DNA from: an uncultured Gammaproteobacteria bacterium
GTDB lineage: Bacteria > Pseudomonadota > Gammaproteobacteria > JAURND01
Assembly: GCA_963714975.1 (NCBI GenBank)
Contig: CAVQQD010000003.1
Coordinates: forward strand, 320,001-384,000
DNA: 64,000 nucleotides
Direction of reading: 5' to 3'
Shown: in pieces, positions 5,449 through 13,221 of the stretch
How the letters are laid out: every line of letters begins with the position of its first letter
How positions within the stretch are numbered: position 1 is the first letter of the stretch
The notes under the pieces: generated by a model
Databases searched by the model: none
The model's input: the letters and a program-made list of their open reading frames with translations, nothing else
Told to the model about the DNA's origin: nothing
Program-made: the position numbers and the translations under genes

Positions 5449-6480
5449 ATGACAACTGAATTACGCGGCAAAGAGAAGATATTGTACGAATATGCTGTAA
5501 TCCCACCTGAACGTTCCCTTCAAGCAAATCCAGGCGAGAAAACAACAGAAAAATTGCTAGAAGAGCGTATTAATGGCATTTTTCTTAATGAGATTGAGCA
5601 TATTTTAGCCGAGACGAAGGGTGGTCATTCAGAACAAATATTTTTGGGAGATTATCAAGTTACTAGTATCCAAGATGGATTGTCAGAGTCAGCGCAGGGA
5701 TTCCAGCTAACTCATGTCGGGGGTTTAGAGGATGCCAAAAAAAAAGATCGAGAAGTAGAAATTGACGAGCTTGTCGATCTCTTAAAGCAAGACCTCGGTT
5801 TTAAAGGTGGCAAAGCACCTAAATCGCCAATGCGTCGTCCTCATTGCAAAATTTGGGCAGCAGGTCAAAGTCCAATGACAAACGATCCTTTTCCTATATT
5901 TAGATTGGTTGATCCGCCCAAGGAAAATGTTTATACGTTTCTAAAACCTCTTAGTCTGGTCAAGCATTACTACTCCGCAGAGCAGCTGCTAAATGCTAAA
6001 GCTTCTGGAGGAGAATATCACGGGTTTTCTAAGGACAGGACCCGAGCTTGGTCAGATAACAAACCACCATACTATACAGCCCACTATAGGCATCTAGAGG
6101 AGAAGAGGAGCTCAAATACAACCGTACCATACTATCAGCAAGTGAAATGCTCTGATGATGATTTGGGGCATGGACTCAAGGATTTTTATTTTGACTATGA
6201 GGCTTTTAATATAAACAAGTCAACATTTGTTGCAAATACCTATAAACCAGTCAGTGCTATAGCAGCGACGGCGATAGCCGGAAATGTTTTATTTTTTCAT
6301 TTTGTATCACTACAAGACCTGAGAGCACCAATGTTTGGTGCGATCCCTGTTGTACTAGCAGAGGTCCTTCTTTTGTACCTTCTTGTAGTATCAATTAGCG
6401 CGGAATTTACTCGACAACAGGATGAATATTTTGAAACTGCTTGTATTCAAAGAGATCCTGAATCAATAGTACTAACTTAA
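5449..6480 (+). CDS. Hypothetical effector-like protein with two C-terminal TM helices, paralog of 10815-11876
   Basis: Long shared peptide blocks such as DLLKQDLGFKGGKAPKSP and YYQQVKCSDDDLG; RBS GAGG. Confidence 0.8.
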   Translation: MTTELRGKEKILYEYAVIPPERSLQANPGEKTTEKLLEERINGIFLNEIEHILAETKGGHSEQIFLGDYQVTSIQDGLSESAQGFQLTHVGGLEDAKKKDREVEIDELVDLLKQDLGFKGGKAPKSPMRRPHCKIWAAGQSPMTNDPFPIFRLVDPPKENVYTFLKPLSLVKHYYSAEQLLNAKASGGEYHGFSKDRTRAWSDNKPPYYTAHYRHLEEKRSSNTTVPYYQQVKCSDDDLGHGLKDFYFDYEAFNINKSTFVANTYKPVSAIAATAIAGNVLFFHFVSLQDLRAPMFGAIPVVLAEVLLLYLLVVSISAEFTRQQDEYFETACIQRDPESIVLT

Positions 6481-7010: not shown

Positions 7011-7301
7011 TCACATTGAGCTTTTTATTTGTTTTTTTAGAAGGCTATAAAAATTTTCGTGAGGGGCAAACGAGACCAAGGTTAATTCATCCGTTTCTTC
7101 TTCATAAAGGTAAGCAAGCAATATTAATTGCTGTAAAATACGAAACTTATAAACACGAATCCCAGCTAAATCTCCCTTCTTTAATTCACCAATAGGAGGG
7201 TCGTTCTCAATTTCCTCAATTGCTTCTTTAAGCGCAACCAATTGATTACGATGCAGCTTTTTCGCTGCGCGTAAGAAAGTATTGGTTCGTAAAACCTTCA
7301 T
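7011..7301 (-). CDS. RelE/ParE-family toxin
   Basis: 96 aa; GELKKGDLAGIRVYKF and C-terminal HENFY. Confidence 0.88.
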   Translation of the reverse strand: MKVLRTNTFLRAAKKLHRNQLVALKEAIEEIENDPPIGELKKGDLAGIRVYKFRILQQLILLAYLYEEETDELTLVSFAPHENFYSLLKKQIKSSM

Positions 7302-7522
7302 AATTCATCCGGATCATATTCTTGAACATTACCAAGTCGCACATCTTCGAGACCCAACAAAATTCCTTTAACAGCCTCATAGTTAAGGTCTGGATTTTCT
7401 TCAGCAATACGACCTATTTTGGCCCAGTGCTCGATCTGCTTAGGGACGGAACGGCTTTCTGCTCTAGAATAAGAACGCGCAATACTAACTAAGTCATTAT
7501 CTAAATTAACAGCAATTCCCAT
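7298..7522 (-). CDS. ParD-like antitoxin
   Basis: RSVPKQIEHWAKIGRIAEENPDL; ATGA overlap with the toxin. Confidence 0.88.
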   Translation of the reverse strand: MGIAVNLDNDLVSIARSYSRAESRSVPKQIEHWAKIGRIAEENPDLNYEAVKGILLGLEDVRLGNVQEYDPDEL

Positions 7523-7889
7523 GATCTACCTCCAATAATTTACTTAACTAAAGTATACAATATAATATTGCTTAATGCAATAAGGAATTACAATATATAA
7601 CATTACATTAAGCTTGATTATTGACTCTTCAGCCTCATTACCATATCCAACGGTCAAATCCAATTCGAATGACATTAATTAAAATGATACGGAACACTTC
7701 CGCCCTGAGAAAAGGCATAACAATTGCTAAACCCACGTAAAAACTGACTAATCCCTGAGCAAGATCAGTTAAAATCGCAGCCCGGCTCCTATCGGTTCAA
7801 CAAGAAGATAAATGTACTGTAGTGTCTACCTGTTTTGGATTCGCTTTTTACTGTATTGAGTTTGGCTTTGACCAGAATATAATAGCCGC

Positions 7890-9086
7890 ATGAAAATACA
7901 ACAAGCATTTAGATTCCGTATTGAGCCGAATGGTGCGCAAAAACGCGCGATGAGTCAGTTTGCGGGTAATGCACGTAAGGTTTGGAATTTAGCATTAGCG
8001 CGTCAACAAGAGCTCTATGCCGAAAACAAACCGTTTACCCATAGCTTTGGTATGAATCACTGGTTGTTAGTATGGAAAAAAGCAATGCCCTACCTGCAAC
8101 AATCGCCTTCCCAAACCTTGCAACAAGTCACCAAGGACCTTGATCGCGCATTTAAAAACCTCTTCGCCCACCGTGCTGCTTTCCCAAAATTCAAGAAAAA
8201 AGCTCACTCATCAGCTAGTTTTCGTTTTCCACAAGGGTTTAAGCTCGATCAAGATAATAACCGTATTTTTCTGCCAAAGTTGGGATGGATACGCTATCGC
8301 AACAGTCGCGATGTAGTAGGGAAAATTAAAAACGTCATCGTTAAGCAATGCAATGGCTTGTGGTTTGTATCAGTGCAGGCCGAGCGTGAAGAGAGTCAAC
8401 CCTTGCCAACAGCTACTACCCCAGTGGGTATCGATATGGGTATTGCACGTTTTGCTACGATGAGTGATGGGACCTATGTCGAACCCGTGAATAGCTTCAA
8501 AAAACATCAAGCACGTAACGTCGCCTCAAGCGTAAGAAAAAATTTAGTCGTAATTGGATAAAAGCCCAAAGACGGGTTCAAAAGACTCACAACACGATTG
8601 CCAATGTCAGACAAGATTTTCTGCACAAAACCAGCACCGCGATCAGCAAAAACCACGCGCTCGTCTGTGTTGAGGATTTGCAGATAGCTGCAATGTCGAA
8701 ATCTGCCCAAGGCAATTGTGAGCAGCACGGTCGCCAGGTCAGACAAAAGGCAGGTTTAAATCGTGCCATACTGGATCAGGGTTGGGGCGAATTTCGACGC
8801 CAATTAGCTTACAAGCTTGAGTGGAACGGCGGCATTTTTCTGGCGGTGGATCCCGAAAAATACCAGTCGAACCTGTCCTGCCTGTCAGCACGTTTGTGCA
8901 GACAATCGCAAAACGCAAGCTGAGTTTGTTTGCGTGCGTTGCGGCTATAGCCACCATGCCGATGTGGTTGGCGCGATCAATATTTTAGAGCGGGGGCACC
9001 GCTTGCTAGCTTGTGGAGAGAAGACGCAGTCAGGTCGCTCGAGGAAGCAAGAACCCACCGAAGCGAGTTGCGCACAGGTTGCGTAA
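7890..9086 (+). pseudogene. tnpB: TnpB RNA-guided nuclease (IS200/IS605 family), frameshifted
   Basis: N-terminal HTH; RuvC motifs GIDMG, VEDL and HADVVGA; CPAC..CVRC Zn finger; split over three frames by a short deletion near 8515 and an extra base near 8853. Confidence 0.92.
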
Positions 9087-9136
9087 CCGCAGTAGGAATC
9101 CTCGCCCTTTAGGGCGAGGAGATACCGTCTCATCTG

Positions 9137-10102
9137 TCAAGCTAATTTTAATATATTTTGATCAAACACGGTTTCAGATTTTAGTATCCCGTAAATCATA
9201 TGAACAAGCTTTCTCATTACTGCGCCAATAATAACCATTTTGTGTTTGCCGGTTTTTTCTAGTCGCATAGAAAAATTTCTGAGTATTGGGTTATGTCTCA
9301 TGGCGACAACAGCGGGCATATAAAATGCTTTTCTTAGAGCCGAATCACCTGTTTTAGAGAGTCTAGCTCTACCATTGATAGAGGTTCCTGATTGTCGTTG
9401 CTTGGGATTAAGACCAACGAATGCCGCCAATTCTTTCGCATTATTGAATTTACTCACATTCCCAATAAAAGCCAATATCTGCGCTGTAGTTGCTTCTCCA
9501 ATACCAGGAATAGATTGCAATAGCTTGCTTTTTTTCTTCATGTCAGGATCGCTATTTATGTGATTTTTAATGACATTTTTAACTTCCTTAATATTGTTTT
9601 CTAAGTGGATAATGTTCTCTTGTATGTGCTCCTTTAAACAATCATCAGAGACTTCTAATCGGTTTGCTTCTTGCCTGTGCATAGCGATTAAATCATCCAA
9701 TCTCCTAACCCATTGCTGTAATATTTTAATCGGTTCAGGAGTTGGTTGCCATAATTCTGGGCCTATCAACTTACAAAATCTTGCAATTAATTTTGCATCA
9801 AGAATATCATTTTTAGAGCGGGCTAATTCACTTTGAGAAAATCCTTTAATTCTCGCAGGATTAACAACGCTTATAGGGATTTCTTGAGCATAAAGAAATT
9901 CGGCTAATGCCTGCCCGTAAATACTGGTTGCTTCCATACAAGCTTGAGACAACACGATTTCCTTCTGGTTTAGCCATACAAGTAATTTATTAAAGCCTTG
10001 CTCGTTATTGTTGAATTTTTGAGTTTTTATCTTATCTTCCATTAGCACAGCTACATCAAATGTATTTTTACTGATATCAATGCCTAGAAATGCTTTCTTC
10101 AT
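9137..10102 (-). CDS. IS110 bridge recombinase (DEDD plus Tnp_20 domains)
   Basis: GIDISK, MEAT, KNDILDA, SIPGIG and RQSG motifs; 321 aa, intact. Confidence 0.96.
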   Translation of the reverse strand: MKKAFLGIDISKNTFDVAVLMEDKIKTQKFNNNEQGFNKLLVWLNQKEIVLSQACMEATSIYGQALAEFLYAQEIPISVVNPARIKGFSQSELARSKNDILDAKLIARFCKLIGPELWQPTPEPIKILQQWVRRLDDLIAMHRQEANRLEVSDDCLKEHIQENIIHLENNIKEVKNVIKNHINSDPDMKKKSKLLQSIPGIGEATTAQILAFIGNVSKFNNAKELAAFVGLNPKQRQSGTSINGRARLSKTGDSALRKAFYMPAVVAMRHNPILRNFSMRLEKTGKHKMVIIGAVMRKLVHMIYGILKSETVFDQNILKLA

Positions 10103-10139
10103 AGTAGTATCCTACATGTTGCGAATAGCTTGGATAGCT

Positions 10140-10330
10140 TTATTCGGACCAACCTTGTGAATACAGGATCATTGATATTTACCTCAAGTCCTAAGATACC
10201 GTCCGGTCTGTATGAATAAAGTACGGGGTAAATTGCTAAAATCTCCTCTACAGGCTTAATGCCTTAGGAAGTCACCGGCATATTTACCCCTATCCAAGTG
10301 CCCTTGGATATTTAACCACATTGAGTGATT
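10140..10330 (-). ncRNA. IS110 bridge RNA (boundaries approximate)
   Basis: 5' hairpin at 10291-10310; target loop closed by GGGGTAAAT/ATTTACCCC and holding TGACTTCCT and AGAGGAG; donor loop holding ACGGTATCT and ACAAG. Confidence 0.85.
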
Positions 10331-10368
10331 GGAATTAAGATACAAGGATGTCAAAACTTTTAGGGGTA

Positions 10369-10438
10369 CCAGAATAAGAGAATAAGTGAAATTTGTTCGG
10401 TAGCAAGGGAACAAATTTCACTTATTCTCTTATTCTGG
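10369..10438. repeat. Perfect 30-bp inverted repeat with 10-nt loop
   Basis: CCAGAATAAGAGAATAAGTGAAATTTGTTC followed by its exact reverse complement. Confidence 0.9.
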
Positions 10439-10814
10439 GGGAGAGTGGTAGTTATAAAAATATTCTCGGATTCACCTGATACAAGGTTGTAGGCTTTTTA
10501 GTATGGGTCAATTTAATGGGAAGACTAACTATATTACGTTGATGCAACCAAACTAATACTTTGGCCAATCGCTCGGGTTTGCGAAACCTTAATTTTCCTG
10601 TTCCCTGGATCCCTGTATCCATGTAGGGATGACGGGGGCTGCGGTGATTCGCCGAGAATTAGTTAGGTCGTGAATTAAATTCCCACCCTCTCCGCCGATT
10701 CCATTTTAGAATTGCTGCGTGTCGCTGTATCCTAAAATAACTTTGAACAATGTATCAGCATAAATTAGTTGTTTAGAAGGCTGCCCTGGAAACAGGAAGG
10801 GCAGCAATGAGAGT

Positions 10815-11876
10815 TCACTTTATAGTTGTATTTGGCGTTGATTCAGGATCTCTTTCAATAAGAGCAGTTTCTAGATATTCATGCTTTTGTCGATTATATT
10901 CCCCGTCAATTGTTACTATAAGAAGTACAAAAAGGAAGGCTTCCGCGAATATAAAAGGTAGAGGTCCAAGCCCATCCAGCGATCTCCCAATGTCTTGTAG
11001 TGATACAAAATGAAAAAGTAAAACATTTCCTGCTATCGCCGCTGCTGCTATAGTACTAACTGGTTTATAGGTATTTGAAACAAATGTTGACTTATCTACT
11101 TTAAAAGCCTCATAGTCAAAATAAAAATCCTTTAGCCCACGACCTAAATCATCATCAGAGCATTTCACTTGCTGATAGTATGTTACGGCTGAATTTGAGC
11201 TATTCTTGTCTTCTAACTGCTTATAATGGGCTGTATAGTATGCTGATTTGTCTGACCATGATTGTCGTTTCCGTGCCTCAGAAAACCCGTAATATTCTCC
11301 CCCAGGAGCTTTAGCATTTATCAGCTGGTTTGGGGAGTAATACTTGCTTCGACTAAGAGGCGTTAGAAATGTATAAACACTTTTGCTTTCCCCTTGAGGT
11401 GGCTCAAGCAATCTAAATATAGGAAAAGGCTCGTCAGTCATTGGACTTTGACCTGCTGCCAAAATTTTGCAATAAGGACGGCGCGTTGGCGATTTAGGTG
11501 CTTTGCCGCCTTTAAAACCGAGGTCTTGCTTTAAGAGGTCGACAAGCTTGTTAATTTCTACACCATCTTGCTCTTGCTCTTTAGCCTCCTCTAAACCCAC
11601 GACACGTGTTAGCTTGAATCGTTGTCCTGACTCTGACGATTCATCGTTGATACTAGTAACTTGGTAATCCCCCAAGAATATTTTTTCTGAATGACCACCC
11701 TGCGTCTGGTCTAAAATATGTTTGATCTCATTAAGAAAAATGTTATCAATACGCTCCTCTAACAATTCTTTACGTGTTTTCTGGTTTGGTTTAGCTAGAA
11801 CGGAAGGGTCAGGTGGGATTACAGCATATTCATACAATGTCAACTCGTTGTGTAATTCAGTTGTACCTTGTTGCAT
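10815..11876 (-). CDS. Hypothetical effector-like protein, paralog of 5449-6480
   Basis: High visible identity to the paralog; same upstream leader. Confidence 0.8.
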   Translation of the reverse strand: MQQGTTELHNELTLYEYAVIPPDPSVLAKPNQKTRKELLEERIDNIFLNEIKHILDQTQGGHSEKIFLGDYQVTSINDESSESGQRFKLTRVVGLEEAKEQEQDGVEINKLVDLLKQDLGFKGGKAPKSPTRRPYCKILAAGQSPMTDEPFPIFRLLEPPQGESKSVYTFLTPLSRSKYYSPNQLINAKAPGGEYYGFSEARKRQSWSDKSAYYTAHYKQLEDKNSSNSAVTYYQQVKCSDDDLGRGLKDFYFDYEAFKVDKSTFVSNTYKPVSTIAAAAIAGNVLLFHFVSLQDIGRSLDGLGPLPFIFAEAFLFVLLIVTIDGEYNRQKHEYLETALIERDPESTPNTTIK

Positions 11877-12216: not shown

Positions 12217-13221
12217 ATGTCCCCCAAAAATAAAACTATTGATCTTCCTGTTCCTAATACTCCTCACGACAATTTTTTTGTGAACTGCTTGTCAGACTTA
12301 ACCACCGCTAAGGAATTTCTATTACAGCATCTTCCACAACCACTGTTGGATGTCTTGGATTTGACCACCCTGGAAATAGATCACAGTCGCTTCGTGAGTT
12401 CTATTTTATGTTCTCGCTATGCCGATATTGTATTTAAGGCGCGACTTAAAAATTCCCAACAAACAGCCTTGATCATTACCCATATTGAGCATCAATTGAC
12501 TCCAAAGAGGGATATGCCAGTACGTGTTTTGCTTTATCAGACCGGAGTTATTAAAGATTATTGGTACCGATGCAAACAAATTCCCCTGGTGTATTCGATA
12601 GTTTATTACAATGGCAAAGAGGTTTGGCATTATCCCACTGACCTTAAGGCGATGATCAATGCGTCAGCGGATCTAATTGACCGTTATTTTCTCCAGCCTT
12701 TTCAATTAATACACTCAAAAGAAGTCCCTGATGAAGCATCAGGGCAAACTTTCCTGTTGGATTTGATGCAAATAACCATGGGGCATATTCACGATAGTGA
12801 TATGCTACCAGTATTTAAAGAGAAAATAATGGGCAGGTTAATTACCGCTGAAAAACACGGTAGACAAGATTTAATCTTAATCGTAATATACTATATTATA
12901 AGTACCGGTGAAATTAGCGATAAAAATGCTTTTTATGCGCTGGTTGATTCCCAATTATCTCAAGAAACTGGAGAAAAAGTTATGACTTTAGCACAACAGT
13001 GGCGTGAAGAAGGGCGCCAAGAAGAAAGAGAAAAAACTATGACTTTAGCTCAGCAGTGGCGTGAAGAAGGACGCCAAGAAGAAAGAGAAAAAACTATGAC
13101 TTTAGCACAGCAGTGGCGTGAAGAGGGGCACCAAGAAGAAAGGTTGATAGTAGCTGCTTCTATGTTAGAACAAGGCTTTAGTCCCGAAGTGATTGCTCAA
13201 GTCACCGGCTTATCTGTGTAA
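12217..13221 (+). CDS. Rpn/YhgA-like (Transposase_31) nuclease
   Basis: PHDNFF, ADIVF and IEHQ PD-(D/E)XK motifs; C-terminal MTLAQQW repeats; IAQVTGL tail. Confidence 0.92.
   Translation: MSPKNKTIDLPVPNTPHDNFFVNCLSDLTTAKEFLLQHLPQPLLDVLDLTTLEIDHSRFVSSILCSRYADIVFKARLKNSQQTALIITHIEHQLTPKRDMPVRVLLYQTGVIKDYWYRCKQIPLVYSIVYYNGKEVWHYPTDLKAMINASADLIDRYFLQPFQLIHSKEVPDEASGQTFLLDLMQITMGHIHDSDMLPVFKEKIMGRLITAEKHGRQDLILIVIYYIISTGEISDKNAFYALVDSQLSQETGEKVMTLAQQWREEGRQEEREKTMTLAQQWREEGRQEEREKTMTLAQQWREEGHQEERLIVAASMLEQGFSPEVIAQVTGLSV
12982..13140 (+). repeat. 57-bp tandem repeat x3 in the Rpn C-terminus
   Basis: MTLAQQWREEG(R/H)QEE units starting at 12982, 13039 and 13096. Confidence 0.95.

Follow-up and report, generated by a model that had tools for sequence, protein, structure and literature searches.

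The window analysed here is a 64-kb stretch of DNA from an uncultured Gammaproteobacteria bacterium, and its subject is an insertion sequence of the IS110 family lodged within the right end (RE) of a TnpB-encoding element of the IS200/IS605 type. The comparisons presented below suggest that the insertion sequence carries a bridge RNA directed at such right ends. The features that make up the locus are the following:

9122-10346, minus strand: IS110-family element, 1225 bp including a single CT core, the other core lying at 9120-9121
9137-10102, minus strand: recombinase open reading frame (ORF), 321 amino acids, with a DEDD RuvC-like domain and a Tnp domain (Pfam, PDB)
9135-9140, minus strand: TTGACA, a -35-like hexamer in the right end of the IS110 element (read from the sequence)
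7811-9121, plus strand: TnpB (IS200/IS605-type) element hosting the insertion (Pfam, full-length copies)
9100-9119, plus strand: RE subterminal hairpin CCTCGCCC-TTTA-GGGCGAGG, last stem of the presumed omegaRNA scaffold (below-threshold Rfam match)
10347-10354, plus strand: severed RE tip GATGTCAA, with the boundary after TCAA placed by the divergence of copies

The exact ends of the IS110 element were set by four full-length copies with 99.3-99.8% identity. Its core, AG on the plus strand and CT in the orientation of the element, stands at 9120-9121 and 10345-10346, and a CT core is found on both sides of all four full copies. On the minus strand, left flank, core and left end read TGACATC-CT-TGTAT, while right end, core and right flank read ACGGTAT-CT-CCTCG. 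When 9122-10346 is excised from the sequence, ...CCTCGCCCTTTAGGGCGAGGAG is fused with GATGTCAA.... This removal is scarless, with the rejoined flanks resembling unoccupied REs of the genome and of a contig from one sequencing run (X4, ...GGGCGAGGAG|GATGTCAA...), so that a first, sequence-only reading of this DNA was right to propose that excision restores a TnpB right end.

The recombinase exceeds the curated cut-offs of PF01548 (E=3.5e-24) and PF02371 (E=9.5e-29), and against the PDB it aligns with the IS621 transposase 8wt6 over residues 5-315 (E=1.3e-72) and with ISCro4 9t56 (E=2.3e-74). Its frame is open in all four full copies. Non-coding DNA occupies 244 nt upstream of the ORF and only 15 nt downstream. 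Across joined ends, the TTGACA hexamer would stand 17 nt from TATCTT (10337-10342), which makes the pair a candidate junction promoter. A sigma-70 scan of the linear sequence, to which a junction promoter is invisible, found nothing exceeding shuffles. In addition, four sequencing runs yielded neither a joint nor a circle junction among contigs covering small shares of the element, most of which is uncovered in each run, and a look-up of RNA sequencing runs containing the stretch listed none. By every family feature that can be tested by sequence, the element is an IS110 of the IS621 type. Taken jointly with the explanation favoured below, 9122-10346 is probably an active or recently active element of this type.

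The host tnpB gene is frameshifted at 7890-9086, and its ORF pieces match PF12323, PF01385 and PF07282 (helix-turn-helix, OrfB_IS605 RuvC and zinc-ribbon TNB domains). Full-length TnpB copies elsewhere in the genome are 95.8-96.1% identical, four of them with an intact 402-amino-acid ORF. The hairpin and the ending ...GTCAA| are common to both TnpB families of the genome, and the copies of both diverge directly past GTCAA, which sets the element boundary there. The insertion point lies 8 nt inside this boundary, between the last hairpin and GATGTCAA. Furthermore, the genome encodes Y1 TnpA (PF01797) at three loci, one of them intact.

Some further properties of these TnpB elements were recorded. 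The Y1 TnpA genes (C2:659197-659559, C2:509016-509378 and C1:106334-106696; C1 to C3 are the contigs of the genome) lie near members of the second TnpB family (RE ...GCCGGAGAGGATGTCAA), and two of the three contain one in-frame TAG each. The same 40 nt stand upstream of the start of similarity in the TnpB copies at C1:103775, C2:609477, C3:489119 and C2:358165, which points to a larger repeat or to a true left end further out; the copies at C3:470260 and C1:120585 have a hairpin, CTTATGTGGAGCTCCACATAAG, at their start. At C1:120404-120585, a mini element spanning about 180 bp consists of left-end and right-end parts of the TnpB family only. Its RE (...GGACAAGGAAGTCAAG) is faintly like the IS110 left junction and may be a deletion relic, with only 3 nt in favour.

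The long non-coding left end of the IS110 element was found to contain a predicted bridge RNA, with a left and a right target guide (LTG, RTG) and a left and a right donor guide (LDG, RDG):

10103-10346, minus strand: non-coding left end with the bridge RNA, 244 nt (fold, covariance model)
10291-10310, minus strand: 5' stem-loop of the bridge RNA, 8 bp (fold)
10225-10290, minus strand: target-binding stem-loop, outer stem GGGGUAAAU/AUUUACCCC, inner hairpin AGGC/GCCU (fold, covariation)
10266-10274, minus strand: LTG UGACUUCCU (DNA TGACTTCCT), 8/9 to the target
10243-10249, minus strand: RTG AGAGGAG, pairing with CT-CCTCT, 6/7 to the target
10147-10208, minus strand: donor-binding stem-loop, outer stem GACCGG/UUGGUC (constrained fold, stem measurement, inner-stem covariation)
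10194-10202, minus strand: LDG ACGGUAUCU (DNA ACGGTATCT), identical to the right end of the insertion sequence plus core, 9/9 to the donor
10144-10152, minus strand: RDG AUUCACAAG, 9 nt, 7/7 to the core and left end (CTTGTAT) when a bulge of 2 nt is allowed

The left end folds better than its shuffles (z=-3.2), and a fold in which the four guides are held unpaired gives the 5' stem-loop and two stem-loops with internal loops. The architecture described for IS621 in the sections of its report devoted to the bridge RNA consists of a 5' stem-loop followed by target-binding and donor-binding stem-loops with internal loops, where the 5' strand of each loop corresponds in sequence to the top strand of left half-site and core, the 3' strand can pair with core and right half-site, and a discontiguous 9-for-7 pairing of the RDG is known (PMC11208160). 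The left end matched no bridge RNA family of Rfam 15, and a covariance model was therefore built from the left ends of 43 relatives, the lineage of the element itself being left out. This model matches 10139-10302 on the minus strand along its full length (68.9 bits, E=1.3e-17), the sole significant match in the window, and it also matches the remaining genome copies and a relative on a metagenome contig (L073). The guide positions are thus set by homology and not by match-seeking, so that their agreement with the sites goes beyond chance. Rfam matches to traJ-II, mir-1006 and Dianthovirus were rejected as chance resemblances to hairpins.

Across 45 aligned left ends, variation is greatest in the columns of the target guides, and the donor guides are conserved. 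RNAalifold, applied to the MAFFT alignment of these 45 relatives, found compensatory changes in 10 of the 11 consensus pairs of the inner stems, the only stems that this alignment recovers; the outer stems are out of register in it and were therefore measured sequence by sequence. The outer helix of the target loop reaches at least 6 bp in 42 of the 45, in sequences that differ strongly between lineages, and its median of 8 bp stands in modest contrast only to the shuffle mean of 5.4 bp. Between the window copy and L073, two compensatory pair changes occur in this outer stem. The sequence-only reading had called for a covariance model, which the match at 10139-10302 now supplies, and its guide placement largely agrees with the model: LTG (10274-10266), RTG (10249-10243) and LDG (10202-10194) stand where it put them, with the same match counts of 8/9, 6/7 and 9/9. 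Its RDG at 10158-10154 was placed 10 positions too high, the ACAAG part lying at 10148-10144.

The use of sites was then compared across the genome (2.56 Mb in three contigs). BLAST finds six places similar to the element, namely four full copies, one 713-bp partial copy and one 34-bp remnant. Three of the four full copies are inserted at the same RE position of different TnpB copies, with different DNA beyond the RE, and each runs in the direction opposite to tnpB. Only the left flank is preserved in the partial copy and the remnant, and it is RE-tip-like in both (TTTGACTTC and TTTGACATC). As to the remains themselves, the partial copy (C1:90926-91638, L103) is cut at element position 713, where the recombinase frame continues into an unrelated frame resembling the ORF at 12217-13221 of the window. 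A 14-mer at C2:541139 (TGACTTCCTTGTAT), considered as a relic of a left junction, was rejected, since it lies within an ordinary coding region and is treated as chance.

For a genome-wide scan, the four copies were removed and the 288,341 CT sites were scored against the guides of the window copy at 7 left and 5 right positions:

0-1 mismatch: 0 sites, 0 occupied
2 mismatches: 11 sites, 3 occupied
3 mismatches: 112 sites, 1 occupied
4 or more mismatches: the remainder of the sites, 0 occupied

TnpB REs account for 6 of the 11 best guide matches, all with 2 mismatches, and by simple arithmetic the chance that three of four random sites would land in the best 11 is about 2e-13. The second TnpB family, whose RE matches the RTG at only 4/7, has six copies, all unoccupied in this genome. 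An abundant palindromic repeat similar to the repetitive extragenic palindromes (REPs) is absent from the 11 best matches of the scan. This repeat (core CCTTCTCCC-CTTGTG-GGAGAAGG, then GGCCG..GGATGAGGGG) has more than 150 BLAST hits in the genome and occurs in the window at 2271-2324, 52129-52169, 57575-57738 and 61568-61615.

The guides also vary together with the sites. Position 77 of the element, which is LTG base 5, is polymorphic among the genome copies, and it reads the base at which RE tips vary (GA?GTCAA, with T, A or C). An A at this position in C3:467739 and C2:654158 gives these two copies an LTG (TGACATCCT) that matches the site each occupies at 9/9, with the RTG at 6/7. The position is T (TGACTTCCT) in the window copy, in the off-target copy at C2:1202799 and in the partial copy, which adjoins TGACTTC. 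Further evidence comes from relatives outside the genome. The recombinase of L073 is 76% identical, and this element occupies the same RE position in an IS605-type element, 8 bp away from the boundary. That IS605-type element has an adjoining TnpA and a TnpB that is 49% identical to that of the genome and matches all three domain families. The L073 site reads TGACGTC-CT-CCCCG, to which its RTG (CGGGGAG) matches at 7/7 and its LTG at 8/9; in the guide stretches of the target loop, only two RTG bases are changed relative to the window copy. In addition, on a contig from another sequencing run (X3), an element 95-99% alike has its right end fused, at the homologous position, to an RE hairpin of the second TnpB family type. 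The X3 and X4 contigs are of low depth and represent weak evidence.

Lineages with other targets show the same correspondence of guide columns and flanks. For instance, L107, inserted in a REP-like palindrome, matches at 7/7 on the left and 7/7 on the right, five copies in one genome (L109-L113, G063) match at 7/7 and 6/7, and L108 matches on the right side. A recombinase closer than the best value of 55-56% identity was not found among 40 relatives, 8 other genomes of the order and 400 of the class (G254 unscored), nor among 50 loci on genome contigs, and in 57 plasmid records all were below 60%. Among 36 loci of cyanobacterial and enterobacterial relatives, the end was located in 33; the flank starts with AC in 31, AA in one and AG in one, and at none of these 33 ends does a TnpB hairpin follow the flank, so that these lineages do not share the target. 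The genome itself holds a second IS110-family element with a recombinase of 29% identity, present in four copies of about 1.2-1.3 kb (L019-L022, at C2:68799-69689, C3:402869-403759, C3:459871-460761 and C3:520638-521528). Their flanks differ from one another, and no TnpB hairpin was seen in those inspected.

Altogether, these results make it very probable that an RNA-guided IS110 lineage targets TnpB right ends. Several observations weigh against this conclusion. The case for RNA-guided targeting is drawn throughout from the comparison of sequences, and outside the genome the same target is seen in one relative (L073) and one low-depth contig only. The fourth full copy (C2:1202799) has GTCCTTC-CT-CCTCT as its site, close to where a host ORF begins, and is the poorer match, while this non-TnpB site is the only one that the RTG AGAGGAG fits perfectly (7/7). 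The window copy is imperfect at its own site (LTG 8/9, RTG 6/7), and the REs at C1:102453, C2:610798 and C3:268409 are empty with equally few mismatches, from which it follows that matching alone is not decisive for occupancy. Two of these empty sites, C1:102453 and C2:610798, carry the RE variant AGGAAGTCA, whose existence had been predicted from the LTG. Homology also supports the omegaRNA in part only: below threshold, the intact RE resembles the 3' ends of two Rfam families, HgcC (28.2 bits against a cut-off of 50, E=0.0011; consensus ending ...GGGCGGGGAGGAGGUCAG) and sot0042 (17.8 bits against 88), and the omegaRNA of this TnpB family is presumed by analogy. Both of these Rfam RNAs are sited at the 3' ends of tnpB genes.

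Some of these irregularities may have known causes. A bridge RNA is able to act in trans, according to the relevant part of PMC11208160, and the window copy could thus have been placed by the RNA of a sister copy. For IS621, a recent preprint attributes about half of non-target-site insertions to substrates matching half of the bridge RNA (10.64898/2026.08.31.748434), which may explain the fourth copy. The sequence-only reading had stated that copies in sites unrelated to TnpB ends, such as a host REP fitting the guides better, would speak against targeting, and the outcome of this check favours targeting. No host repeat fits the guides better, the REP-like repeat included. One full copy does sit away from TnpB ends, within a host ORF, and three of four lie in REs, accompanied by the two remnants with RE tips, the 76%-identical L073 and the X3 contig.

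The element might be RNA-guided with the TnpB RE as merely its best near-match, the true cognate TGACTTC-CT-CCTCT being something else that is absent here. This would account for a genome in which no site has fewer than 2 mismatches to the guides of the window copy, 5 of the 11 best sites are non-TnpB and the RTG finds its perfect partner at C2:1202799. Such an explanation appears very unlikely in view of the two copies whose LTG matches the RE at 9/9, the 7/7 match of the L073 RTG to its own RE, the use of the same position in three different TnpB families and the absence of any insertion at the five non-TnpB sites with 2 mismatches.

A single entry of IS110 into one TnpB is a further, highly improbable alternative, in which the composite TnpB::IS110 was then multiplied by TnpA using the distant cleavage motif, or by recombination, so that the repeated position would reflect descent and not targeting. 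A TnpA gene is present in the genome, and IS200/IS605 elements tolerate flexible spacing of the cleavage motif, as stated in the portion of the Meers et al. preprint that treats it. All three occupied REs are of one variant, GAGGAG|GATGTCA, as common descent would also give, and an approximately unbiased (AU) test does not reject a single clade of the occupied copies at 0.05 (p=0.076). Descent of the composite predicts equal divergence of its two parts, which is not what is seen. The three occupied host TnpBs differ at 46/1284, 21/662 and 21/661 aligned positions (3.2-3.6%), whereas the differences between their IS110 inserts number 7, 7 and 2 in 1225 positions (0.16-0.57%), which places the arrival of IS110 after the divergence of the TnpBs. 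Every occupied TnpB is nearer to an unoccupied copy than to another occupied one, the occupied copies are monophyletic in 0 of 200 bootstrap trees, the insertion sequence has moved alone to a non-TnpB site, and in L073 and on the X3 contig this position is occupied in different TnpB families. The three RE insertions therefore look independent in their sequences.

Recognition of the site by the protein or the adjacent DNA hairpin alone, with incidental guide matches, is hardly credible: a strong hairpin does abut the site, and ISPpu10 is reported to need a hairpin beside its target (10.64898/2026.03.19.712850), yet the inspected flank of the fourth copy is unlike the RE hairpin despite an RTG match of 7/7, the guide columns agree with the flanks in five lineages with unrelated targets, and simple arithmetic puts the chance of 6/7 and 4/5 non-core matches at pre-fixed positions at about 2e-5. 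The hairpin may contribute on top of pairing.

Under RNA-guided targeting of TnpB right ends, the junction of the element's own ends would be recognised by the donor loop (LDG ACGGUAUCU, RDG AUUCACAAG). For the target loop (LTG UGAC[U/A]UCCU, RTG AGAGGAG), the sequence recognised would be TGAC(A/T)TC-CT-CCTC, which in this genome is complementary to the final ~14 nt region of TnpB REs (...GAGG-AG-GA(T/A)GTCA A|), and recombination at the CT core would place the element 8 bp inside the RE boundary. By analogy with IS621, the process is expected to involve a circular intermediate, the junction promoter TTGACA-17 nt-TATCTT and RNA-guided strand exchange. By analogy with ISDra2/IS608-type elements, insertion would part the last scaffold hairpin from the omegaRNA pseudoknot strand and guide, and also the TnpA-bound hairpin from the cleavage motif. 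In ISDra2, as described in PMC10097598, the boundary marks the end of the omegaRNA scaffold and the guide comes next, with nt -6 to -2 forming a conserved pseudoknot gripped by TnpB and stem 4 just before it. The Meers preprint locates the TnpA cleavage motif at the RE boundary and describes its pairing with a DNA guide close to the hairpin. If the TnpB family is built like ISDra2, the scaffold would lose its pseudoknot strand and guide through the insertion, and the hairpin would lose its cleavage motif.

It can reasonably be inferred from these parallels that insertion disables both the TnpB omegaRNA and TnpA cleavage, which would make the IS110 element a 'hyperparasite'. The host TnpB copy would lose homing and excision, and the IS110 element would gain a repeated, harmless and horizontally travelling landing site. 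Among occupied TnpB elements, tnpB is intact in one of three and degraded in two; the unoccupied long copies number four, three of them intact and one without the first 20 codons and the left end. These counts are too small for any argument.

A tentative and rather doubtful extension is that of an ongoing conflict between two RNA-guided elements, in which IS110 is specialised on the best-conserved portion of the TnpB guide-RNA gene (last stem, pseudoknot strand and cleavage motif) and silences the TnpB copy, while guides and targets co-evolve. The RE varies (omegaRNA -6 and one stem pair) exactly where the guides read it, and the guides are polymorphic at the matching positions (LTG base 5 within the genome, RTG bases 1 and 3 between lineages), which would then represent natural guide-target co-evolution. 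The landing pad itself moves between hosts, and in such a conflict IS110 would spread along with it.

Bridge recombinases and TnpB are both intensely studied as compact genome editors, and little has been written on natural bridge RNA targets beyond REPs. The present case would provide a natural bridge RNA aimed at the guide-RNA gene of another RNA-guided system, as well as a testable case of one transposon disabling another. Guide changes that track target variants would be a natural example of single-base re-programming, and the sites that are mismatched but used, or matched but unused, form a natural set for tolerance studies. In addition, truncated TnpB REs may conceal IS110 insertions, which serves as a warning for annotation.

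The neighbourhood of the locus shows a few other features. Just past the TnpB RE, a long near-perfect inverted repeat spans 10366-10442 (CCAGAATAAGAGAATAAGTGAAATTTGTTC ... GAACAAATTTCACTTATTCTCTTATTCTGG) and is the source of the chance Rfam matches to traJ-II and mir-1006. Two related ORFs of 343 and 353 amino acids (5449-6480, plus strand; 10815-11876, minus strand) face each other across the TnpB/IS110 region; both begin ...LYEYAVIPP... and finish in a hydrophobic stretch. At 7011-7522 on the minus strand, directly upstream of the TnpB element, two small ORFs (96 and 74 amino acids) overlap by 4 nt in a toxin-antitoxin-like layout.

Comparison with known systems places the element close to IS621 of E. 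coli. As far as the published description of IS621 extends on these points (PMC11208160, 8wt6), the two share a two-domain recombinase, a CT core and an apparent lack of terminal inverted repeats. Also common to both is a left end in which a 5' stem-loop precedes a target loop with guides of 9 nt (LTG) and 7 nt (RTG) and a donor loop with a 9-nt LDG and a 9-for-7 RDG, as well as a -35-like box in the right end that faces the circle junction. The protein identity to enterobacterial relatives is about 45-49%. Unlike IS621, the present element is known from its sequence alone, and its natural target is a TnpB right end and not a REP. The natural IS110 targets documented in the pertinent parts of PMC11208160 and PMC1525189 are REPs, and no report of an IS110 aimed at an IS200/IS605 or TnpB end was found in full-text literature searches or in term look-ups within PMC11208160, PMC11187229 and 10.64898/2026.10.21.760802, a scope outside which supplementary target tables and most subscription journals fell.

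Elements of the IS1111 group offer a second parallel. IS4321/IS5075 and the attC-targeting elements likewise direct a DEDD transposase at the conserved end of another mobile element, in their case the inverted repeats of the Tn21 family and integron attC, respectively (summarised in PMC11187229 and PMC11208160). As characterised in these summaries, they differ from the present element in having the guide RNA downstream of the gene, subterminal inverted repeats, a target that is not RNA-guided and insertions that cut no guide-RNA gene. ISPpu9, ISPpu10 and ISPa11, in the accounts of their insertion sites (PMC1525189; 10.64898/2026.03.19.712850), resemble it in inserting beside a repeated hairpin, a multi-copy 'safe' site, at an identical point. 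Whereas those elements use REPs, which are host repeats mobilised by REP-associated tyrosine transposases (RAYTs), the site used here is the functional end of a TnpB-encoding IS200/IS605 element. Mechanism and family thus appear to be ordinary for the IS621 type, and it is the natural target that is unusual and represents a new class.

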